Below are positions 18,115 to 37,470 of a stretch of DNA of 64,000 nt, one piece after another (the first letter of the stretch is position 1; each line of letters opens with the position of its first letter). Position numbers and translations under genes: made by a program. This DNA comes from a virus: the IMG/VR virus record IMGVR_UViG_3300045988_091582, one strand, 5' to 3'. A model generated the notes under the pieces. That model made no database searches, had not been told where the DNA came from, and worked only from the letters and a program-made list of their open reading frames with translations.

Positions 18115-18150
18115 TATTGTTGGCAACTAGCAGACAATTAGTTGCATTTG
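18115..18150 (+). promoter_or_regulatory. conserved hairpin element abutting tRNA-Arg
   Basis: ATATTGTTGGCAACTAGCAGACAATTAGTTGCATTTGG with GCAACTA/TAGTTGC stem; near-identical copy at 20636-20674 abuts tRNA-Leu. Confidence 0.45.
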
Positions 18151-18224
18151 GTCCTATAACTCAACTGGATTAGAGTACGAATCTTCTAAATTCGATGTTA
18201 TGCGTTCGAGCCGCATTAGGACCA
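18150..18224 (+). tRNA. tRNA-Arg(TCT)
   Basis: GGTCCTA/TAGGACC acceptor; anticodon arm CGAAT-CTTCTAA-ATTCG; T arm ATGCG-TTCGAGC-CGCAT. Confidence 0.75.
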
Positions 18225-18228
18225 CACA

Positions 18229-18301
18229 TGCGGAGGCTAGAGCACCTCGCTTTCCACAATTCATAGAGAGGTTATATTGGTTCGAATCCTTTACTCCGTA
18301 C
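18229..18301 (+). tRNA. tRNA-like sequence, structure unresolved (possible pseudo-tRNA)
   Basis: GGTTCGAATCC T-loop and a TGCGGAG/CTCCGTA acceptor-like pairing, but D, anticodon and T stems do not fold canonically. Confidence 0.2.
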
Positions 18302-18324
18302 TAATATTAAAAAGATTAAGTAAT

Positions 18325-18675
18325 ATGAAAAAGATTATTTTATTAATGAGTTTTATTGTATTAACTACAATAGCTCATGCGTTTAATTATGGTTCTATCA
18401 CTATTTATCAAGATGGTGAATGGAGTGCCCCATTTTACATTAAAACCTCAGTAGTTTATAATGAATCTAGAAAAACTATTACTTTTAGTAACAATAAATG
18501 GGGTAAGATGGTATTAAAAATATATTCTTCTGAAATGAAGGATGGAGTAGAAATCCATAACTGTGGAGAGGTTAATACAGGAAGACGTTATGTTGTCTTT
18601 ATTACAGTAAGAAATAACATTCCTTATATAACTCTTAGCACTTCCGCAGATACCATGTATTCATTTGGCTTTTAA
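18325..18675 (+). CDS. small secreted protein
   Basis: Track ORF 18277..18675; likely start MKKIILLMSFIVLTTIAHA (signal peptide) at 18325. Confidence 0.5.
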   Translation: MKKIILLMSFIVLTTIAHAFNYGSITIYQDGEWSAPFYIKTSVVYNESRKTITFSNNKWGKMVLKIYSSEMKDGVEIHNCGEVNTGRRYVVFITVRNNIPYITLSTSADTMYSFGF

Positions 18676-18729
18676 GTTTCCATAATAATGTGTTAACGTT
18701 TTACTAGTTTTCGATATAAACTAGTACTT

Positions 18730-18813
18730 ACGGTAGTAGCTCAGTGGCTAGAGCATCTCTTTTTATAATAGGTCATTTCGAGAAGGTCATTGGTTCGAAT
18801 CCTTTCTACCGTA
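18730..18813 (+). tRNA. tRNA-like gene with expanded anticodon loop
   Basis: Perfect ACGGTAG/CTACCGT acceptor and D arm GCTC-AGTGGCTA-GAGC; anticodon stem TCTC/GAGA encloses a ~20-nt loop; T stem carries two T-T mismatches. Confidence 0.35.
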
Positions 18814-18914
18814 CAAATTTAATTAATATATTGTTAATGTGTATAAATCCTAACTAATAAATCTATTAGTATAGGTAGGTGTTACCACTATTCTCCTTAC
18901 AGAAATGTGGGCTA

Positions 18915-18995
18915 TGCAAGGGTGCTTGAATGGTTAAAAGAAACTCCCCGATTTCTAAAGATGGGATATAATGTTGGTCCGAATCCAACCCCTTG
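18915..18995 (+). tRNA. tRNA-like gene, anticodon arm non-canonical
   Basis: GCAAGGG/CCCTTGC acceptor and T arm GTTGG-TCCGAAT-CCAAC; middle region does not give a 5-bp stem with 7-nt loop. Confidence 0.35.
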
Positions 18996-19169
18996 CACAA
19001 AATAAGATTATAAATTAGCTCTCTAAGCTTTAAGGTGAAGCACGAACCTTTTAAGTTCGGGAAGACAGGTCAGTACTGTCAGGGAGCACTATTAATTTTT
19101 AAGTTATTAAAAGTATTATTCATTTTAAAGTTGTTAAAAGTATTCATTTGTAATACACTAGATTCTCGA

Positions 19170-19184
19170 TCTGTGATAGATAGG
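19170..19184 (+). repeat. TCTGTGATAGATAGG motif, copy 3 (abuts tRNA)
   Basis: Exact 15-mer; its last two G are positions 1-2 of the tRNA-like gene at 19183. Confidence 0.6.
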
Positions 19185-19277
19185 CACTATCGTCTAGCTG
19201 GTTAAGACGCTACTTATTTAAAAGATATTATATTAAACTAAGTGGAAAGGCGATTTCGAGCATCGCTAGTGCTACCA
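19183..19277 (+). tRNA. tRNA-like gene with encoded CCA and 22-nt anticodon loop
   Basis: GGCACTA/TAGTGCT acceptor + A + CCA; D arm GTCT..AGAC; T arm GCGAT-TTCGAGC-ATCGC; anticodon stem CTACTTA/TAAGTGG encloses TTTAAAAGATATTATATTAAAC. Confidence 0.4.
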
Positions 19278-19365
19278 TTTCATTTTTTTATAAAACTAAT
19301 ACGATTAATGTTTGAAATATAAAGTTAGTGGACTTTATAACGTTAAAGAGTTGTTAGGCTTCTGG

Positions 19366-19379
19366 TCTGTGAAGATAGG
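19366..19379 (+). repeat. TCTGTGAAGATAGG motif variant, copy 4 (upstream of tRNA)
   Basis: One indel relative to the 15-mer; 9 nt upstream of the tRNA-Ser-like gene. Confidence 0.5.
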
Positions 19380-19388
19380 AAGCTTTAT

Positions 19389-19466
19389 GGAGAAATGACT
19401 GAGTGGCACCCTGCTAAGGTGTTAGTCATATTATGTGGCTCGAAGGTTCGAATCCTTCTTTCTCCG
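19389..19466 (+). tRNA. tRNA-Ser(GCT)-like, short D region
   Basis: GGAGAAA/TTTCTCC acceptor; anticodon arm CACC-CTGCTAA-GGTG (GCU); long variable arm; T arm GAAGG-TTCGAAT-CCTTC; only ~9 nt where the D arm should be. Confidence 0.45.
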
Positions 19467-19481
19467 CTTTATTAGATATCT

Positions 19482-19553
19482 GGGATATTGGTGTAACGAC
19501 AGCCACGTTGGGATTTGACCCCAAAAGAAGAGGTTTGACTCCTCTATATCCTT
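19482..19553 (+). tRNA. tRNA-Gln(TTG)
   Basis: GGGATAT/ATATCCT acceptor; anticodon arm TTGGG-ATTTGAC-CCCAA; T arm AGAGG-TTTGACT-CCTCT. Confidence 0.65.
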
Positions 19554-19575
19554 CTAATTTTAACAGGTGACTTAC

Positions 19576-19660
19576 GGTGTGGGAACCGTCATCTACGAGG
19601 GGTTAGATTGGTGAATAGCTCGTACGGGAATAAGCCTAAGGAGTTCGAATCTCTACACCT
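19576..19660 (+). tRNA. tRNA-like gene, fold unresolved
   Basis: GGTGTGG/CTACACC acceptor pairing (7/7) and GAGTTCGAATCTC T-loop; internal TACGAG/CTCGTA stem encloses a ~19-nt loop. Confidence 0.3.
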
Positions 19661-19849
19661 GACAATTTAATAGGTACTAAACAACTCTCAGTGATTCTAT
19701 TAAATAGCGTAATTACCTTAAAATTAATCATTTGGGTTAAAAAGAGAAAGAACGTTAGATAGCTGAGGACAATGGAATAGTTTAAATATAACCAGTGAAA
19801 ATTGCCTATTATTTAAATAGATTATTAACACATTAATTATAGATAAATT

Positions 19850-20239
19850 ATGACAAGACAAGATTATTTTATTAGTAAAACCAATTTAATAGCACAAATA
19901 GAAAGTGCTAAGAAATTTGGTTGTAAAAATGTACTCAAGTGTGCAAAATTAAACTTAGCTGAACTTGAAAAGAAGTATAAAGAAGAACATCTTTCTAATC
20001 CTCTGTTCAGTTACATGGTAACTGAGGAAGAAATGGATGAGCTTATTAGAAATGATGAAAAGCCTACATTTAAAATCAAAGTAACTTTTAAAAGTGGAGA
20101 AGCTTATGATTTAATGTTTTACCATGAACTTAAAAGTGGAGTTAAACATTCTGATGTTGTGAAATGGGCGATGAAAGGATTAATTAAAACTATTTATCAT
20201 CCTGAAAATATTGTAGATGCTCGTTTTATTATGGGTTAA
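19850..20239 (+). CDS. hypothetical protein
   Basis: Track ORF 129 aa. Confidence 0.45.
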   Translation: MTRQDYFISKTNLIAQIESAKKFGCKNVLKCAKLNLAELEKKYKEEHLSNPLFSYMVTEEEMDELIRNDEKPTFKIKVTFKSGEAYDLMFYHELKSGVKHSDVVKWAMKGLIKTIYHPENIVDARFIMG

Positions 20240-20244
20240 AAGAT

Positions 20245-20604
20245 ATGGAAATAAAAACAATACAAATTGACTCCGATACATTTTTAGTGTTTAAAGGACG
20301 AGAGTACAGACAGATAAACATAAATAACATTGTATGTATAAAAACATCTGGTAAATATAGTACTATAATAGATGTTCATGGCAATGGTATTATTGTATGT
20401 TGTTCATTAAAAAATATTTCACGTGTTTTATGTATTGATTTTATTCTTGCAACACAAGGATTTTTAATAAATCATAAATACATATCTGAAATAACTAGAA
20501 AGAATGATGAAAATAATACATATATCTTAAAGTTAAATGATGATGTCCATACAACTGTGGATATTTCATTACATGTAGCTACAAATATGTTAAAACAACT
20601 GTAA
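20245..20604 (+). CDS. hypothetical protein
   Basis: Track ORF 119 aa. Confidence 0.45.
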   Translation: MEIKTIQIDSDTFLVFKGREYRQININNIVCIKTSGKYSTIIDVHGNGIIVCCSLKNISRVLCIDFILATQGFLINHKYISEITRKNDENNTYILKLNDDVHTTVDISLHVATNMLKQL

Positions 20605-20635
20605 TACCATAATAGTTTTTAAAGTTTATAAATAA

Positions 20636-20674
20636 ATATTGTTGGCAACTAGCAGATAATTAGTTGCTATTTGG
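20636..20674 (+). promoter_or_regulatory. conserved hairpin element abutting tRNA-Leu
   Basis: ATATTGTTGGCAACTAGCAGATAATTAGTTGCTATTTGG; second copy of the 18115 element. Confidence 0.45.
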
Positions 20675-20756
20675 CTCAGTATCCGAATTGGTATAGGAGA
20701 TGGTCTTAAACACCATTGGACATGTGTCCGTACGGGTTCGAGTCCCGTCTGAGCTA
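20673..20756 (+). tRNA. tRNA-Leu(TAA), type II
   Basis: GGCTCAG/CTGAGCT acceptor; anticodon arm ATGGT-CTTAAAC-ACCAT; variable arm GGACA..TGTCC; T arm ACGGG-TTCGAGT-CCCGT. Confidence 0.75.
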
Positions 20757-20944
20757 CATAATTGATTATTTATTATGTTTTGAAAAATTAAAATCATTCA
20801 TAATTACTGTGAATTTGTGAAAATTTATAAGTAATGTAAAATTTTCGTTTTGTAGAAGATTTTATCTTTCTTTTAAACTCATATTGCTTGTGAAAGTAGT
20901 ATGAGTTTTTAAATAAGGCTATATAGCAATACTAGTATAAATAG

Positions 20945-21017
20945 AAATGTGTAGCTTAAAGCGGTAGAGCACTGACTAGGTAACCAGAGGTTGGCAGTTC
21001 GAGTCTGTCCGCATTTC
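20945..21017 (+). tRNA. tRNA-like gene, anticodon arm unresolved
   Basis: AAATGTG/CGCATTT acceptor; D arm GCTT..GAGC; T arm GGCAG-TTCGAGT-CTGTC; 17 nt between do not form a canonical arm. Confidence 0.35.
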
Positions 21018-21211
21018 CTTTTTCTATCATAAATTTTAATTTTTAAGTTATTAAAAATAAAAGAGTTTTGCTTGTGAAAGTAGAATTTTTTATCAAAATC
21101 AAAATGTGAAAACTTTAATAAGTCGGAGGACTTACAAAACTCAAAAAAGTGTGTCTTAGTGGCAGCTAGCAAGTAGGGAGGAGAGAATTAACGACTCTCA
21201 GACACATCTTC

Positions 21212-21284
21212 GGGCTTGTAGTTCAATCGGTTAAAACGGGAGACTCATAATCTCTTATTCTCGGTTCAATCCCGGGCGAGCCCA
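21212..21284 (+). tRNA. tRNA-Met(CAT)
   Basis: GGGCTTG/CGAGCCC acceptor; anticodon arm GGAGA-CTCATAA-TCTCT; T arm CTCGG-TTCAATC-CCGGG. Confidence 0.7.
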
Positions 21285-21375
21285 CTATTTCTTTTATTAT
21301 ATTATTCTATTTTAAAGAGTCTAATTAGTTAATCTAGTTAGGCTCTTTTTGTTTAATTAAATAACACATTAACAT

Positions 21376-27590: not shown

Positions 27591-28217
27591 ATGTATTTAG
27601 AAGGAGATAAATGGAAAAATTGGCACACTAAATGTTCTGATGCTGCCATTAAAGAGATCAAAAGTGAAGAAGATACTAAACTAAGTACTATATCAGTATC
27701 TAAATTACTTGAATATGCTCACACTGCACTACGTAATTGTGAGATTAATAATTTAGATCCTAATAAAGTTCCAGTATTTCTTACATTAGATCATAATAAG
27801 AACTTGTATTCTTATGTAGGATTATCTATATATAGTAGTAGTCAGTTAGGTACTTATGTAACTTTAGAGTCTTCAGATTATTATAAAATGTTCTATGTTG
27901 CTCCAGATTCTAAACCTGAAGTTGGGGAATATTGGAGAAGTAGAGGTGTAGGTTATGATTTGTCTGGTTTTGTAGTATCTAAACTATCTGGAGAACGTTT
28001 AACTAGATTAGTTAAATATGTATTAAATACAGATAAACCTCTGTCTCATCTAGATTACAGAGAATTTGAACCTGATTGGATTCAATTCAAGTTTCAAAAG
28101 GAAGAATTTAATTTGGAACTATTAGATAATCTCGCTAGAGAAAATGATGGTACAATTAATGAAAATATATTAAGACAATGTATGATTAATGATTCCGAAA
28201 AAGAGGCAGATTTATAA
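27591..28217 (+). CDS. hypothetical protein
   Basis: Track ORF 208 aa. Confidence 0.5.
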   Translation: MYLEGDKWKNWHTKCSDAAIKEIKSEEDTKLSTISVSKLLEYAHTALRNCEINNLDPNKVPVFLTLDHNKNLYSYVGLSIYSSSQLGTYVTLESSDYYKMFYVAPDSKPEVGEYWRSRGVGYDLSGFVVSKLSGERLTRLVKYVLNTDKPLSHLDYREFEPDWIQFKFQKEEFNLELLDNLARENDGTINENILRQCMINDSEKEADL

Positions 28218-28518
28218 TTTCTTTGATGACGGTAAATGTTCACCAAGCAGATTATATAAAGCTTATGTAAAGAAAGTAATTCCTTTTAATAAAGCTAATA
28301 TACATCTAAAGATACATTTAGTAAATAGTGCTCTTGATTATGATTGGATATGGAATGGAGATACTGATTATTTCATAGGTTGTTATATTCCTAAATATGA
28401 TAATCATCTTGTTTGGTTTGCAAGGACTAAATATGGTTCATGGTTTAGTATGGATATTCAATCTAATTGGCAAGGAGGATTGTTAGATGTCAATAGAGAT
28501 GTTCAATTTAGTTTTTAA
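28189..28518 (+). CDS. hypothetical protein
   Basis: Track ORF 109 aa. Confidence 0.45.
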   Translation: MIPKKRQIYNFFDDGKCSPSRLYKAYVKKVIPFNKANIHLKIHLVNSALDYDWIWNGDTDYFIGCYIPKYDNHLVWFARTKYGSWFSMDIQSNWQGGLLDVNRDVQFSF

Positions 28519-28601
28519 CATTAATTAAGTTTTAAATTATGAGTAATGAAGATAAAATAGATCCAGATAATTACAATTATCTGCGTTAGTATATAATTCA
28601 T

Positions 28602-28629
28602 AAAAGAGTTCTAACTTAGGACTCTTTTT
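28602..28629 (+). terminator. terminator-like hairpin
   Basis: AAAAGAGTTCTAACTTAGGACTCTTTTT. Confidence 0.4.
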
Positions 28630-29002
28630 AAATTGGGGCTAAACTAGTATTTGATTGTCTAGGAGATAAGAAACACAGCAAGACAGTTGGAAAGACAACA
28701 AAACAATAAATGCTAGAGTTATCAATATGACTCCTGCTTATCAGGCTGCCGCCTAATAAGTCGAGCAGCACTTGCTTAGGAACAGAAAGGTGCACTATTT
28801 TCCATTTCTTTATTAGTTCTCTGTATACTTTAGGAACAGAGTGGTGGAAGTTGACAATATATAAATCTTGTCAACCCTAACAGACAAGGACAGTCTTTAA
28901 AACCTATGCTGTAAGAACGTTTTGATGCAAATAGGCAAGACGACGGGGCAGTACCGTCTAGCTCCACTAGTTCATAGATTGTTTTTATTATTATTTGTTT
29001 TT
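28630..29002 (+). ncRNA. candidate structured non-coding RNA
   Basis: ~370 nt with no credible ORF, bracketed by terminators; internal hairpins GTTGACA..TGTCAAC and GACGG..CCGTC; somewhat higher GC. Confidence 0.3.
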
Positions 29003-29038
29003 AATCCCTGGGCTATTATTATAGTTCAGGGATTTTTG
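29003..29038 (+). terminator. rho-independent terminator
   Basis: AATCCCTG..CAGGGATT stem followed by TTTTTG. Confidence 0.55.
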
Positions 29039-29058
29039 TTTAATTTTAACTGTTAATT

Positions 29059-29904
29059 ATGGGAATTTTTAGTAATTTTTTAAAAGAAAACAAAAAAGAA
29101 CAAAAGCCTTTAATAACTATAGATAAAGAATTATCTAAGTTAGCGGTAGATTTAGTAGTGGTTTCAGAAGGCACAGCATTAGTTCCTTTAAAATCTAATG
29201 ATTTGTCTGGAGAATATGCCAGATTATGTGGATTAGGATTAGACAATAGTGCAAATGCCAAATTCTTAAAAGACAGAATGCGTGATATTGATGCATATAA
29301 TAGAAATATTATAAAAGCTCGTGAGTTATTAAATTATATAAAGACTGTAAATGAGTTTTTAGGAGACTCTGTTATATTAGTTAGTAGACCTTCTTTTTAT
29401 AAATTATGCCGTAAGTATGAATTATCTATTGGACGTCTTGAACAGTTTACTGGAGTTATACCTGATGATAATTTAAAAGAATTATCTGATATGGATAATT
29501 ACTCTGGTTATGTAAAATTAGACACAAACAAAAATATGGTGAGAATTATAAAAATATATAACACCAGTGATAAGAGTGATTCTGATATTCGTAAATGCCT
29601 AGATTATAACTTTAATATTGTTCCAGGTCATGGTACTGTATATAATATGAACTATATTGAAGGGTTTGAAAATGAGAAATGGGCTGAAGCAGTAGGTTTA
29701 GATGTGCATTATATGCGTAGGGACGAAGTGTTTATAGCTTGTCCAAAATCAAATCTACAAGAGAAAGTAGTTATAGTTTCTCACCCTGTAGACCCAATAA
29801 TATTTCAATATTGTCCTTTTGGAGTATTGATATATACTATGTGGGGAAAAGAAGCTGAAGATAAAGTATTTGAAGAATATAAAAAGTTAAGAGCTATAAA
29901 ATAA
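29059..29904 (+). CDS. hypothetical protein
   Basis: Track ORF 281 aa. Confidence 0.5.
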   Translation: MGIFSNFLKENKKEQKPLITIDKELSKLAVDLVVVSEGTALVPLKSNDLSGEYARLCGLGLDNSANAKFLKDRMRDIDAYNRNIIKARELLNYIKTVNEFLGDSVILVSRPSFYKLCRKYELSIGRLEQFTGVIPDDNLKELSDMDNYSGYVKLDTNKNMVRIIKIYNTSDKSDSDIRKCLDYNFNIVPGHGTVYNMNYIEGFENEKWAEAVGLDVHYMRRDEVFIACPKSNLQEKVVIVSHPVDPIIFQYCPFGVLIYTMWGKEAEDKVFEEYKKLRAIK

Positions 29905-36107: not shown

Positions 36108-36188
36108 GTCTAGATAGCCAAGTGGTCAACGGCAGCAAGCTGTTAACTTGCCCCGAAAGGTTCCTAGGTTCGAATCCTAGTCTAGGCG
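36108..36188 (+). tRNA. tRNA-like gene, anticodon GTT with long variable region
   Basis: GTCTAGA/TCTAGGC acceptor; D arm GCC..GGC; anticodon arm GCAAG-CTGTTAA-CTTGC; T arm CTAGG-TTCGAAT-CCTAG; 12-nt variable region is unusual for a GUU anticodon. Confidence 0.45.
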
Positions 36189-36200
36189 CAATAAACATAT

Positions 36201-36271
36201 GGAGTATTAAGCCCTGTTGGTAAGGGAACTAGACTGTCACTCTAGTAAAACTAAGGGTCCCTTATATTCCG
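36201..36271 (+). tRNA. tRNA-Asp(GTC)-like, no canonical T arm
   Basis: GGAGTAT/ATATTCC acceptor; anticodon arm CTAGA-CTGTCAC-TCTAG; T region replaced by a short AAGG-GTC-CCTT hairpin. Confidence 0.35.
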
Positions 36272-36404
36272 CAAATAATGGAGAGCACCTAGTTGTTAAC
36301 TGGGTGGTTGTTAGAGGTAGCGGTGGCAGCCTGATAGCTCAATGTATTATTAGAATATGGTCACGATAGTTTGCCCGTCTAATGCCATATTCGCCTTTAT
36401 TCTA

Positions 36405-36476
36405 GCTTCAATAGCACAGTGGTAGTGCAGCTCACTTGTAATGAGCAGGTCGTGGGTCCGAATCCTACTTGAAGCT
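36405..36476 (+). tRNA. tRNA-Thr(TGT)
   Basis: GCTTCAA/TTGAAGC acceptor; D arm GCAC-AGTGGTA-GTGC; anticodon arm GCTCA-CTTGTAA-TGAGC; T arm GTGGG-TCCGAAT-CCTAC. Confidence 0.75.
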
Positions 36477-36656
36477 CTCTAATTTAACATGGAGCATGTA
36501 CCAAAGCAGTATCTTAACTCAAGGGGCATTGAAAAGAGAGGTAACGTTACTCATAATATAGTCATGTCGAAGGTTGAGAGAACCTTATAAAAAGTCATCG
36601 ATAGATGGTACTGAAAGACTTTGCTTCGCCGAAAATTCTTTAAAACAACATATATC

Positions 36657-36725
36657 GCGGATGTGGTGTAATGGTAACATGCTAGGCTCATAACCTAGAG
36701 TAGTCGTTCAAATCGAACATCCGCA
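36657..36725 (+). tRNA. tRNA-Met/Ile(CAT)
   Basis: GCGGATG/CATCCGC acceptor; anticodon arm CTAGG-CTCATAA-CCTAG; T loop TTCAAAT with a weak 3-bp stem. Confidence 0.6.
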
Positions 36726-36787
36726 AGATTCACATAGTAAGAACCTCCACGTGGTGTGAATTGGGTAATGCTAATCTTACTAAAAAT

Positions 36788-36871
36788 TATCTAGTATGTG
36801 AAGTGGTCAAACACAACAAACTGTAAATTTGTCGCTATTTAGCTTCGGGAGTTCGAATCTCTCCTAGACAA
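36788..36871 (+). tRNA. tRNA-Tyr(GTA), type II
   Basis: TATCTAG/CTAGACA acceptor (one A-C mismatch); D arm TGTG..CACA; anticodon arm ACAAA-CTGTAAA-TTTGT; long variable arm; T arm GGGAG-TTCGAAT-CTCTC. Confidence 0.55.
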
Positions 36872-36891
36872 CTAATTAAAAAATAAATAAT

Positions 36892-37368
36892 ATGGAAAAA
36901 ACTTTTAATTATCAATCTGACGCAAACTTTTATGATAAAAAGGATTTTATTATAGCTGTTTTAAAAAGAAAAATAAATAGTTTTAAAGAGTATGATGCTG
37001 AAAGAAAAAAACATTATGCTGGTTTAGAACAAAAAGTTGGAGAATTAGAGTCTTATATAGACGAATTAGAAAATGGACTTAGTATAGATTCTTTAAATAA
37101 TAAGATTCAGTCTTTAGAAAATGAGATTGAGAAACAGAATCTTAAAATTAGAGAGTTAAGAGCTAAAGTTAATATATCTTTATTTGATGATACTAAATCT
37201 TTTAGAGAATTAGAATCTATGGCAAATAATTTGAAAGACTTTAATAGTATGAAATTGGCTATTAAAGATCTTAGAAAACAACTTAAAGATAATAAAAAAA
37301 CTATATCTGATTTAATATATGAATTAACACAAGCAAAACTTAAAATAAAACAATTAACTGGAGAGTAA
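36892..37368 (+). CDS. coiled-coil protein
   Basis: Track ORF 158 aa; heptad-rich. Confidence 0.45.
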   Translation: MEKTFNYQSDANFYDKKDFIIAVLKRKINSFKEYDAERKKHYAGLEQKVGELESYIDELENGLSIDSLNNKIQSLENEIEKQNLKIRELRAKVNISLFDDTKSFRELESMANNLKDFNSMKLAIKDLRKQLKDNKKTISDLIYELTQAKLKIKQLTGE

Positions 37369-37378
37369 TCTCCAATTT

Positions 37379-37452
37379 GGGGCGTCGGCTCAAGTGGTCA
37401 GCACCTGCTTTGCACGCAGGCATTCTTAGGAGTTCGAATCTCCTACGCTCCA
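37379..37452 (+). tRNA. tRNA-Ala(TGC)
   Basis: GGGGCGT/ACGCTCC acceptor; anticodon arm CCTGC-TTTGCAC-GCAGG; T arm AGGAG-TTCGAAT-CTCCT. Confidence 0.75.
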
Positions 37453-37470
37453 CTATTAAATTAAATATTT

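Follow-up and report, generated by a model that had tools for sequence, protein, structure and literature searches.

Introduction

Phage tmRNAs are already known, and a tmRNA in a phage is in itself ordinary. In huge phages, tmRNAs have been reported and were found with ARAGORN (Al-Shayeb et al. 2020, PMC7162821). Mycobacteriophage DS6A carries a tmRNA that, in the passage of PMC11915505 that cites it, is described as CDS-less and as an inhibitor of the endogenous tmRNA. The T-loop of the tRNA-like domain is changed in some lineages: in the mitochondrial tmRNA of Reclinomonas, guanines replace both T-loop uridines, and in the tmRNA of Caulobacter, one uridine is replaced (PMC1168896). The three main papers on Lak phages do not mention a tmRNA.

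The window in this study is a 64,000-nucleotide stretch of viral DNA (IMG/VR record IMGVR_UViG_3300045988_091582). The genome is 93% identical to MT835492, an unannotated human-gut phage scaffold, and patches of it are 77-87% identical to Lak megaphages of Prevotella. The window contains a one-piece, phage-borne tmRNA (ssrA) gene, whose function would, by analogy with known tmRNAs, be the rescue of stalled ribosomes. We consider the whole explanation, that is, a phage tmRNA acting in trans-translation with a working alternative elbow, to be highly probable. The novelty lies in the elbow: it is an exchangeable variant, it has a precedent in another tmRNA lineage, and it recurs in overlooked phage tRNAs.

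The locus and its boundaries

The gene lies in a gap without a credible ORF, which extends from the end of a small ORF at 28518 to the start of the next operon at 29059. The original prediction, made from the letters alone, had described positions 28630-29002 as an ORF-free unit of locally higher GC between two terminators and had proposed a structured noncoding RNA. This description was confirmed, with the functional unit lying just inside the stated extent, at 28635-28969. No credible ORF was found with the standard code, nor when TAG, TGA or TAA was taken as a sense codon. A frame of 102 codons is the longest between two stops, and it requires five TAA read-throughs. Frames that avoid the reassigned stop reach at most approximately 57 codons, except for one minus-strand frame of 81-83 codons. 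A recoded small protein gene, which had been named among the findings that would speak against a structured RNA, was not seen; the unit does hold a 14-codon internal tag frame, and the tag frame of a tmRNA is read by trans-translation, not by initiation. The GC content of the unit is 0.36 versus approximately 0.26-0.31 in its surroundings. The neighbours of the gene encode an AAA ATPase, a flotillin/SPFH protein and proteins of unknown function.

Both bounding hairpins were recovered (Table 1). The downstream hairpin is the sole terminator-like site in 28000-29600, where 0.2 sites would be expected. It lies 33 nt 3' of the tmRNA gene and is kept in sister contigs. The upstream hairpin, absent from the output of a simple terminator scan, lies 6 nt ahead of the 5' G of the tmRNA, and its 3' arm, GGACTCTTTT, is kept in sister contigs. 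It either terminates the small genes before it or belongs to the 5' leader of the pre-tmRNA. Sigma-70-like promoter matches upstream of the gene were no more frequent than expected by chance, and no exact Bacteroidetes-type TAnnTTTG was found there by eye. The whole 335-nt unit folds with a z of -3.3, and its MFE structure pairs both ends as an acceptor stem.

Table 1. Features of the tmRNA locus and of one tRNA gene in the window, with positions counted from its first letter.
Feature	Position	Strand	Description
Upstream hairpin with T run	28602-28628	+	12-bp stem; -11.8 kcal/mol; z -4.2
tmRNA (ssrA) gene	28635-28969	+	335 nt including the tail A-CTA
Acceptor stem, 5' strand GGGGCTA	28635-28641	+	pairs 7/7 with TAGCTCC
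D-loop analogue AACTAGTATTTGA	28642-28654	+	A28646-G28647 versus G-G in other copies
Helix 2a, 5' strand TTGTCTA	28655-28661	+	pairs with TAGGCAA at 28932-28938
Distal helix 2 strand ACAGC	28675-28679	+	pairs with GCTGT at 28898-28902
PK1-position hairpin GTTG-GAAAGA-CAAC	28686-28699	+	shortly 5' of the resume codon
Tag frame	28712-28759	+	resume codon GCT at 28712; 14 codons = ARVINMTPAYQAAA; TAA 28754-28756 and TAA 28757-28759
Helix 5 hairpin GAGCA-GCACT-TGCTT	28763-28777	+	RNAalifold helix 4
Hairpin GTTGACA/TGTCAAC	28850-28875	+	putative pseudoknot domain; -7.9 kcal/mol; z -5.5
Helix 2a, 3' strand TAGGCAA	28932-28938	+	followed by conserved GAC 28939-28941
T-arm GACGG-GGCAGTA-CCGTC	28942-28958	+	canonical geometry: 5 bp, 7-nt loop
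Acceptor 3' strand TAGCTCC, discriminator A28966 and CTA	28959-28969	+	positional reading from the gene ends
Intrinsic terminator of the tmRNA transcription unit	29003-29034	+	14-bp stem with T run; -19.5 kcal/mol; z -6.3
tRNA-Lys(UUU)	19018-19088		acceptor 7/7; A8; T-arm GACAG-GTCAGTA-CTGTC; tail A-CTA

Identification of the tmRNA through its relatives

The initial lead came from reading the sequence ends of the unit and from a sub-threshold Rfam scan. The unit begins with GGGGCTA and finishes with TAGCTCC-ACTA, two strands able to pair over 7 bp, and GCT GCC GCC TAA TAA stands between them. At the gathering threshold, Rfam returned only tRNAs on the window, and ARAGORN did not call the tmRNA. 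In a permissive scan of 28400-29250, the full tmRNA model RF00023 (positions 1-374) was matched at 28635-28969 on the + strand with 20.5 bits (E 3.7e-6), below the cut-off of 47. The Infernal search against Rfam proposed in the original prediction gave the lead in this way, at a score under the gathering value. Such a match by itself is a lead, not a result. No other Rfam family fitted the unit.

At the level of sequence comparison, we regard the identity as settled by the relatives, through end-to-end homology, syntenic ARAGORN calls and an identical tag. The unit aligns end to end with the annotated tmRNA of the crAss-like phage cr106_1 (74.3 bits in Rfam; ARAGORN tag DNTYRVAA). A 31-nt core (28764-28794), which contains the helix 5 hairpin, is invariant across the whole phage family, and its use as a probe retrieved 44 viral contigs. 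About two dozen of these share the flanks and the terminator of the window. ARAGORN calls a tmRNA in the syntenic contigs L007, L044, L009 and L021, and the tag that it reports for L007, ARVINMTPAYQAAA followed by two stops, is letter for letter identical to that of the window. The syntenic copies with a canonical elbow score 44-69 bits in Rfam and mostly pass, and the other copies with the tRNA-like domain of the window (type A, below) reach up to 34 bits. The undetected copies (those of the window, L003, L023, L038 and others) differ from the called ones solely in the tRNA-like domain. A profile built from alignment A2 (23 rows, the window included) matches the window copy over the whole length.

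When bacterial genomes were searched with the core motif, one match was obtained, on the Prevotellaceae MAG contig L071, and this copy covers only the first 248 profile positions. The possibility that the gene is an integration-site fragment of a host ssrA was considered and excluded, as the gene is full length and has its own 5' half. BLAST of the published Lak genomes gave no tmRNA homologue, and in Lak-A1 and Lak-B1 a profile search, ARAGORN and a structure scan found none within 9 kb of the syntenic gene.

Anatomy of the gene

The tRNA-like domain has all of its stems (Table 1). The third acceptor pair is G3:U70 (G28637:T28963), and the discriminator is A28966. A G:T at the third acceptor position is the alanine identity element of tmRNA. 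The D-loop analogue of the window, AACTAGTATTTGA, is one base off CTGGTATTTGA of L008 and L013. The anticodon arm is absent, and the long helix 2 connects the tRNA-like domain with the remainder of the molecule. The T-loop reads G54 G55 C56 A57 G58 U59 A60, which departs from the canonical sequence on an arm of canonical geometry. CCA is unencoded in the window copy, and several sister copies encode ACCA. The mature 3' end is presumably A28966 with an added CCA.

At the PK1 position only a hairpin was seen; a second stem of this pseudoknot was not identified with the tools used, which do not predict pseudoknots. The tag frame follows this hairpin. In the 3' domain, GGTGGA (28841-28846) is predicted to pair with TCAACC (28872-28877), an invariant pairing that RNAalifold gave as the fifth of its helices. 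It overlaps the 3' arm of the hairpin at 28850-28875, and the two are mutually exclusive as drawn. Besides the hairpin at the PK1 position, RNAalifold gave two conserved helices in this domain, which are mostly invariant. Among the hairpins singled out in the original prediction, GTTGACA/TGTCAAC was recovered in this domain and GACGG/CCGTC proved to be the T-arm, whereas GCTGCCGCC is no hairpin arm and corresponds to the Ala-Ala-Ala codons that end the tag.

Covariation and conservation of the tag

For the tRNA-like domain, positions were counted inwards from the two ends of the gene in 32 distinct complete copies. MAFFT had shifted D-loop length differences to the 5' end, and the acceptor columns of A2 were out of register; for this reason, A2 was used only for the internal helices. 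The acceptor stem pairs 7/7 and has G3:U70 in 32/32 complete copies. Its positions 5-7 change in a compensatory manner (C-G/A-T, A-T/T-A and T-A/A-T/G-C, respectively). In the T-stem, positions 1-2 show 3-4 pair types and positions 3-4 show two, so that 4/5 pairs covary. Helix 2a has changes on both sides in 5/7 pairs. The distal helix 2 occurs as ACAGC/GCTGT, ACATGC/GCATGT, ACAAGC/GCTTGT, ACATAC/GTATGT and ACATAT/ATATGT. The PK1-position hairpin covaries as well, with GTTG/CAAC versus ACTTG/CAAGT and other variants.

RNAalifold on the 23 aligned sequences recovered helix 2a, the PK1-position hairpin, helix 5, a helix of the 3' domain and the T-arm. In this structure, 98.2% of cells pair versus 87.5% in shuffled alignments. 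The covariation score was 0.332 versus 0.133 in shuffled alignments, none of which reached it (0/500), and it fell to 0.016-0.065 when the partners were slid. Folding together with related genomes, as had been recommended, showed a conserved, covarying structure. The idea of a structured RNA was right, and the RNA is presumably transcribed as a unit of its own up to the strong terminator. The tag frame is intact across a 3-nt indel and across three tag classes, ARVINMTPAYQAAA, ARVINMTPVSYAIAA and GEVNNTSASYAIAA. All tags end in -AA. Each of the 23 aligned copies has TAA or TGA as its stop, and none has the recoded TAG.

The region is ORF-free, GC-richer and bounded by hairpins, which would also suit a regulatory sRNA, a ribozyme remnant, a replication origin or a small recoded protein gene. 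The roles of regulatory RNA, ribozyme remnant and origin had been suggested in the original prediction and had to be given up. The tmRNA model is the only meaningful Rfam match, no ORF exists under any reassignment, and the region lacks iterons, AT-rich repeat arrays and a GC-skew switch. Full-length homology to bona fide tmRNAs accounts for every conserved segment. Homology and covariation have effectively refuted these other elements, and we attach a negligible probability to them. The unit is a tmRNA gene.

Three interchangeable tRNA-like domains and a variant elbow

Three types of tRNA-like domain were found in the family. Type A, which is that of the window, has the T-loop GGCAGUA, versus UUCRANU in all other family members. 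Its D-loop analogue, CTAGTA, has A-G in place of G-G. Types B (GGGGCAT.../TTCGACT) and C (GGGGATG.../TTCGACT) both occur in sister contigs. Between the window and type B, the middle domain is approximately 98% identical, whereas the two tRNA-like segments are 76% and 84% identical. The domain types and the tag types occur in differing combinations. Because the middle is so much more similar than the tRNA-like segments, and because domains and tags are mixed, we conclude that the tRNA-like domain is exchanged as a block.

A departure of this kind in the elbow could mean that the gene is a decaying or inactive relic whose tRNA-like domain can no longer fold or be charged. The T-loop of type A keeps only C56 and R57, with U54, U55 and A58 missing, and the D-loop analogue lacks the first G; the low Rfam score, the missing ARAGORN call and the unencoded CCA of the window copy would agree with decay. 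However, every stem is intact, and G3:U70 and A73 are retained. The 73-nt type A domain was 100% identical in six comparisons between contigs, in which the upstream flank was approximately 90%, the downstream flank 76-82% and the tmRNA middle 91-98% identical; the domain has thus stayed invariant where the flanks diverged by 9-24%. No type A copy has a broken tag frame, and these copies span three tag classes. The same loop is the norm in alphaproteobacterial tmRNA, and in many phage tRNAs it covaries with position 18, which random decay would not produce. We consider a relic very improbable. Recent recombinational spread, and not selection, could account for the complete identity of the type A domains.

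The RNA could also be a mimic that does not rescue ribosomes, either competing with the host tmRNA for SmpB, AlaRS or ribosomes or serving as a decoy for a host nuclease that targets the elbow or the T-loop. The DS6A tmRNA, as cited in the PMC11915505 passage, offers a precedent for such inhibition. The alteration is limited to the region that contacts partner proteins, and interchangeable domains on an otherwise approximately 98% identical RNA are what an arms race might give. Nevertheless, and unlike that of DS6A, the RNA has a conserved tag that is in frame, ends in a degron-like C-terminus and is closed by proper stops. It retains all of the middle domain, for which a pure decoy would have no use, and sister copies at the same locus have a canonical elbow. 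We give the mimic only a slim chance, of the same order as that of the relic.

The type A elbow looks, from the sequences compared, like a working alternative and not like decay. This view is based on the invariance of the domain, the alphaproteobacterial consensus, the recurrence of the loop in tRNAs and the joint switch of positions 18 and 55. Rescue by a tmRNA with this domain would depend on the host SmpB accepting the altered elbow.

The same elbow in phage tRNAs

The exact 17-nt T-arm of the window was intended only as a specific probe. It matched approximately 20 unrelated viral contigs. The matches lie in gaps of tRNA arrays that ARAGORN left uncalled, and there the 17-mer forms part of complete cloverleaves whose anticodons are those of His, Thr, Gly or Lys. 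Two cloverleaf tRNAs with the GGCAGTA arm exceed the Rfam tRNA cut-off. On contig L070, the T-arm of the window is part of a permuted alpha-type phage tmRNA (80.3 bits). In cultured Streptomyces phages, a tRNA-His has the T-loop GGCGGTA and the D-loop AAAAGTA; a few records carry an annotation for it, and most sister genomes have none.

The two sides of the elbow change together. In a probe-biased sample of phage tRNAs, the D-loop has GG in only 1/18 tRNAs with GGCRGTA loops (G55) and A-G otherwise. In the same biased sample, G-G was present with 9/9 GTCAGTA loops (U55) and 214/216 canonical loops, and position 8 was A in 19/27 variant tRNAs versus 5/216 canonical ones. The tmRNA of the window obeys the rule of the tRNAs, as its G55 loop goes with A18, a switch from G18:U55 to A18:G55. 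Phage tRNA-like RNAs with the alternative elbow are a grouping proposed here and not a curated family. Their defining features are a 5-bp T-stem bearing the loop G-[G/U]-C-R-G-U-A and, where position 55 is G, a change of position 18 to A. As the probes bias the samples of variant elbows, both the frequencies and the isoacceptors listed should be taken as indications only.

The window itself has a tRNA-Lys(UUU) of this group (Table 1). Its predicted fold is a clean cloverleaf (z -3.4) that makes up 52% of the ensemble, and the gene is kept on sister contigs with changes that preserve pairing. ARAGORN and Rfam missed it, the latter even at E <= 1. Among the 14 matches of its T-arm 17-mer, three (L075, L077 and L084) are not tRNA-like. 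BLAST of one Lys-type tRNA against GenBank phages was uninformative. A literature search for GGCAGUA and similar strings brought up nothing but unrelated primers and miRNAs, and a word search for non-canonical phage tRNA elbows returned nothing specific.

A broader reading can be proposed, in which phages install a distinct kind of elbow that can be transferred, namely the GGCRGUA loop with A18 and, in many cases, A8 and then U as the first D-loop nucleotide. We put this forward as a speculation that is rather unlikely to be right. Together with it goes the doubtful suggestion that the elbow would be used in Bacteroidales, Streptomyces and probably Alphaproteobacteria as hosts, on selected tRNAs (Lys, Thr, His and Gly in the probe-biased sample) and on the tmRNA. 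If it were true, the elbow would remove substrates of T-loop modification enzymes and alter the surface that elbow-binding factors read. Phage RNAs could then evade host nucleases or defence systems directed at the T-loop or the elbow, or alternatively be preferred by phage enzymes. The block swapping of tRNA-like domains among co-circulating megaphages would in that case be a trace of conflict.

Proposed working and TAG recoding

For the tmRNA itself, the working-alternative reading leads to a conventional scheme, taken from established tmRNA biology. RNase P would cut the precursor at G28635, and the 3' end would be trimmed and receive CCA. The host AlaRS would charge the tmRNA with alanine by means of G3:U70 and A73. 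With the SmpB and EF-Tu of the host, the tmRNA would enter ribosomes stalled on stop-less mRNAs. The ribosome would then switch to the resume codon GCT at 28712, add (A)ARVINMTPAYQAAA, terminate at TAA TAA and be released, and the -AAA end of the tag would mark the product for proteolysis. An Ala-Ala degron is typical of SsrA tags. No tblastn match to SmpB was found in the window with an approximate E. coli SmpB query, which is a weak probe. SmpB and the other partners are presumably supplied by the host. Most likely, the phage carries the tmRNA to keep ribosomes available during infection.

The phage reads TAG as sense: this reading takes the coding sequence of the + strand from 37.8 kb up to 49.7 kb. 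Suppressor-like tRNAs also occur in the window. Lak phages likewise read TAG as sense (PMC6784885). Suppression of TAG would drive ribosomes through the ends of TAG-terminated host and early messages and so generate more non-stop complexes. It is plausible that a TAG-recoding phage needs a tmRNA more for this reason. The TAA and TGA stops of the tags fit this idea only weakly. If recoding does raise the load of non-stop ribosomes, the phage tmRNA would be a testable part of the way in which recoded phages handle the switch.

With this gene, a Lak-related lineage of TAG-recoding gut megaphages would have ribosome rescue among its translation functions. The family is also a natural experiment, in which one tmRNA body is combined with three tRNA-like domains, one of which has an elbow of the alphaproteobacterial type. 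This permits a direct test of what the T-loop/D-loop contact does for charging, for SmpB binding and for entry into the ribosome. Under the broader reading given above, genes with the variant elbow would systematically escape ARAGORN and in many cases Rfam as well, and the inventories of phage tRNAs and tmRNAs would be undercounted. Because the finders skip such tRNAs, phage tRNA counts and conclusions about missing isoacceptors may need revision.

Comparison with known tmRNAs

Among the closest known systems are the tmRNAs of crAss-like phages, such as that of the uncultured phage cr106_1 (MT774378; Crassvirales, Steigviridae), annotated as 'transfer-messenger RNA, SsrA'. The cr106_1 gene is a clear homologue over its full length. 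It has in common with the window gene the 5' domain and the hairpin at the PK1 position, the GCxGCC-TAA end of the tag and the 31-nt core AGCAGCACTTGCTTNGNAACAGAAAGGTGCA, as well as the segments GTGGTGGA...TCAACC and the 3' GAC with T-arm and acceptor. Both phages belong to Bacteroidales hosts, and CCA is unencoded in both. Unlike the window gene, that of cr106_1 has the T-loop TTCGAGT and GG in the D-loop, and both its tag (DNTYRVAA) and its middle domain are shorter; it adjoins tRNA genes and passes both Rfam (74.3 bits) and ARAGORN.

The sister Lak-like copies of types B and C (L007, L042, L021, L044, L009 and L004) share the locus, flanks and terminator with the window. Their middle domain is up to 98% identical and their tags are identical or closely related. 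In contrast, a single block made up of the acceptor, D-loop analogue, helix 2a and T-arm has been exchanged (76-84% identity), and these copies have a UUCGACU T-loop with G-G.

The alphaproteobacterial and jakobid mitochondrial tmRNAs have the T-loop type of the window on a 5-bp stem. The consensus T-arm of RF01849 is CCGGG-GGCgGUA-CCCGG, and the window T-loop GGCAGUA fits GGCRGUA. Those tmRNAs are permuted and in two pieces, whereas the window gene has the standard order; their D-loop analogue keeps GG (AAAuAGGAUCGAC), and beyond the T-loop they have no similarity to the window. Membership of the window gene in RF01849 was ruled out, as the gene is not circularly permuted. The tmRNAs of huge phages and of DS6A are, like that of the window, phage-borne, from large genomes in which translation-related genes are abundant. 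ARAGORN, by which those of the huge phages were found, does not call the elbow type of the window. The DS6A tmRNA, as far as the citing passage describes it, lacks a tag frame, whereas the window RNA has one.

With RF00023 and the SsrA of E. coli, the window gene shares the gene order, the acceptor with G3:U70, the absence of an anticodon arm, helix 2, a tag frame after the PK1 position, helix 5 on the 3' side of the stops, a structured 3' domain and the T-arm. It differs from RF00023 in its T-loop and D-loop, in showing only a hairpin at PK1, in a compact, AT-rich PK2-PK4 domain, in a score below the cut-off and in its viral carrier. The conserved T-loop/D-loop sequence, a score above the Rfam cut-off and an ARAGORN call are the family marks that it lacks. 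By architecture, homology and covariation, the window gene is a member of the tmRNA family.

tRNA genes and probable TAG recoding in the window

The tRNA-Lys(UUU) gene is overlooked by standard finders: ARAGORN made no call for it, and it had no match to the Rfam tRNA model even at E ≤ 1. It folds into a clean cloverleaf (z -3.4), with the D-loop TAAGGTG and the T-arm GACAG-GTCAGTA-CTGTC. The gene was kept in 11 sister contigs (Lak-like phage contigs syntenic with the window), and the changes found there preserve pairing. In another candidate tRNA-like gene, uncalled, a long insert separates the D-arm region from the T-arm; the insert is possibly an intron or a long variable arm.

Reading TAG as sense raised the stop-to-stop coding of the + strand from 37.8 to 49.7 kb over the whole window. 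The gain was 11.9 kb, compared with 5.7 kb on the - strand, and standard-code ORFs were sparse in the first 12 kb. Code 15, which Lak phages use, would fit this coding pattern. With TAG as Gln, the putative ORF MSNEDKIDPDNYNYLR runs on through the hairpin upstream of the tmRNA gene to the TAA at 28627-28629. The direct repeat in the tmRNA middle domain suggests that a structural unit was duplicated in the past.

Features of the window and of the contigs compared with it
Feature	Location	Strand	Details
tRNA arrays	Window 18150-21285 and 36108-37453
tRNA-Stop	Window 18730-18814		Anticodon TTA; ARAGORN
tRNA-Stop	Window 19183-19277		Anticodon TTA; ARAGORN
tRNA	Window 20945-21018		Four-base anticodon AGGT; ARAGORN
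Candidate tRNA-like gene	Window 18915-18998	+	Acceptor GCAAGGG/CCCTTGC; T-arm GTTGG-TCCGAAT-CCAAC
tRNA-Lys(UUU)	Window 19018-19088	+	7/7 acceptor stem; A8; tail A-CTA
Internal direct repeat	Window 28776-28792 and 28830-28846		TTAGGAACAGAAAGGTG / TTAGGAACAGAGTGGTG; tmRNA middle domain
Putative 16-codon ORF	Within window 28540-28629	+	MSNEDKIDPDNYNYLR; stop TAG
tRNA-His	L072 2485-2558		Streptomyces phage Warpy; GGCRGUA T-loop class
Permuted (two-piece type) tmRNA genes	L070 1-218; L068 1234-1345		Viral contigs
tmRNA homologue, unannotated	L002 1451-1756		Kehishuvirus 'tikkala', OQ198717; Rfam 41.7 bits
tmRNA-like gene	L071 6728-7049		Prevotellaceae MAG contig CAMWJL010000003.1; core-motif match
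Group I intron	L012 397-648	-	Rfam 87.3 bits

A phage tRNA class with a GGCRGUA T-loop

tRNAs with a GGCRGUA T-loop were found on viral contigs L048-L063, L065, L066, L068 and L069. In these phage tRNAs A-G replaces G-G in the D-loop, frequently together with A8 and a U at D-loop position one. Their isoacceptors were His, Thr, Gly and Lys, in a sample biased by its probes. None was called by ARAGORN, and most sister Streptomyces phage genomes carry no annotation for them.

tmRNA genes outside the window

Against the alphaproteobacterial model, the permuted tmRNA of L070 scored 80.3 bits; its T-arm is exactly the 17-nt T-arm of the window's tmRNA. Kehishuvirus 'tikkala' was cultured on Bacteroides cellulosilyticus, and two 'hypothetical protein' CDS (WEU69822 and WEU69821) overlie its tmRNA homologue. 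This tmRNA diverges from the family immediately past the T-loop (GTCC, then AACCATCCCCAC), so its acceptor 3' strand looks replaced.

Among the bacterial and archaeal genomes searched, the Prevotellaceae contig was the sole match to the core motif of the tmRNA family. Its tmRNA-like gene has the tag end ...SYRIAA and matches the first 248 profile positions only. Visual inspection of the 250 nt that follow this motif on the 3' side revealed no recognisable T-arm, and the gene was not called by ARAGORN. Possible explanations are binning of a phage contig together with its host, or an interruption of the gene.

The intron of L012 splits the T-loop of a Lak-like tmRNA directly 3' of GGGGTT, which is loop subsite 3. 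For introns, this subsite is reported only from the class Bacteroidia in PMC11915505. Thus, a phage of the Bacteroidia host group shares the intron site with this class.
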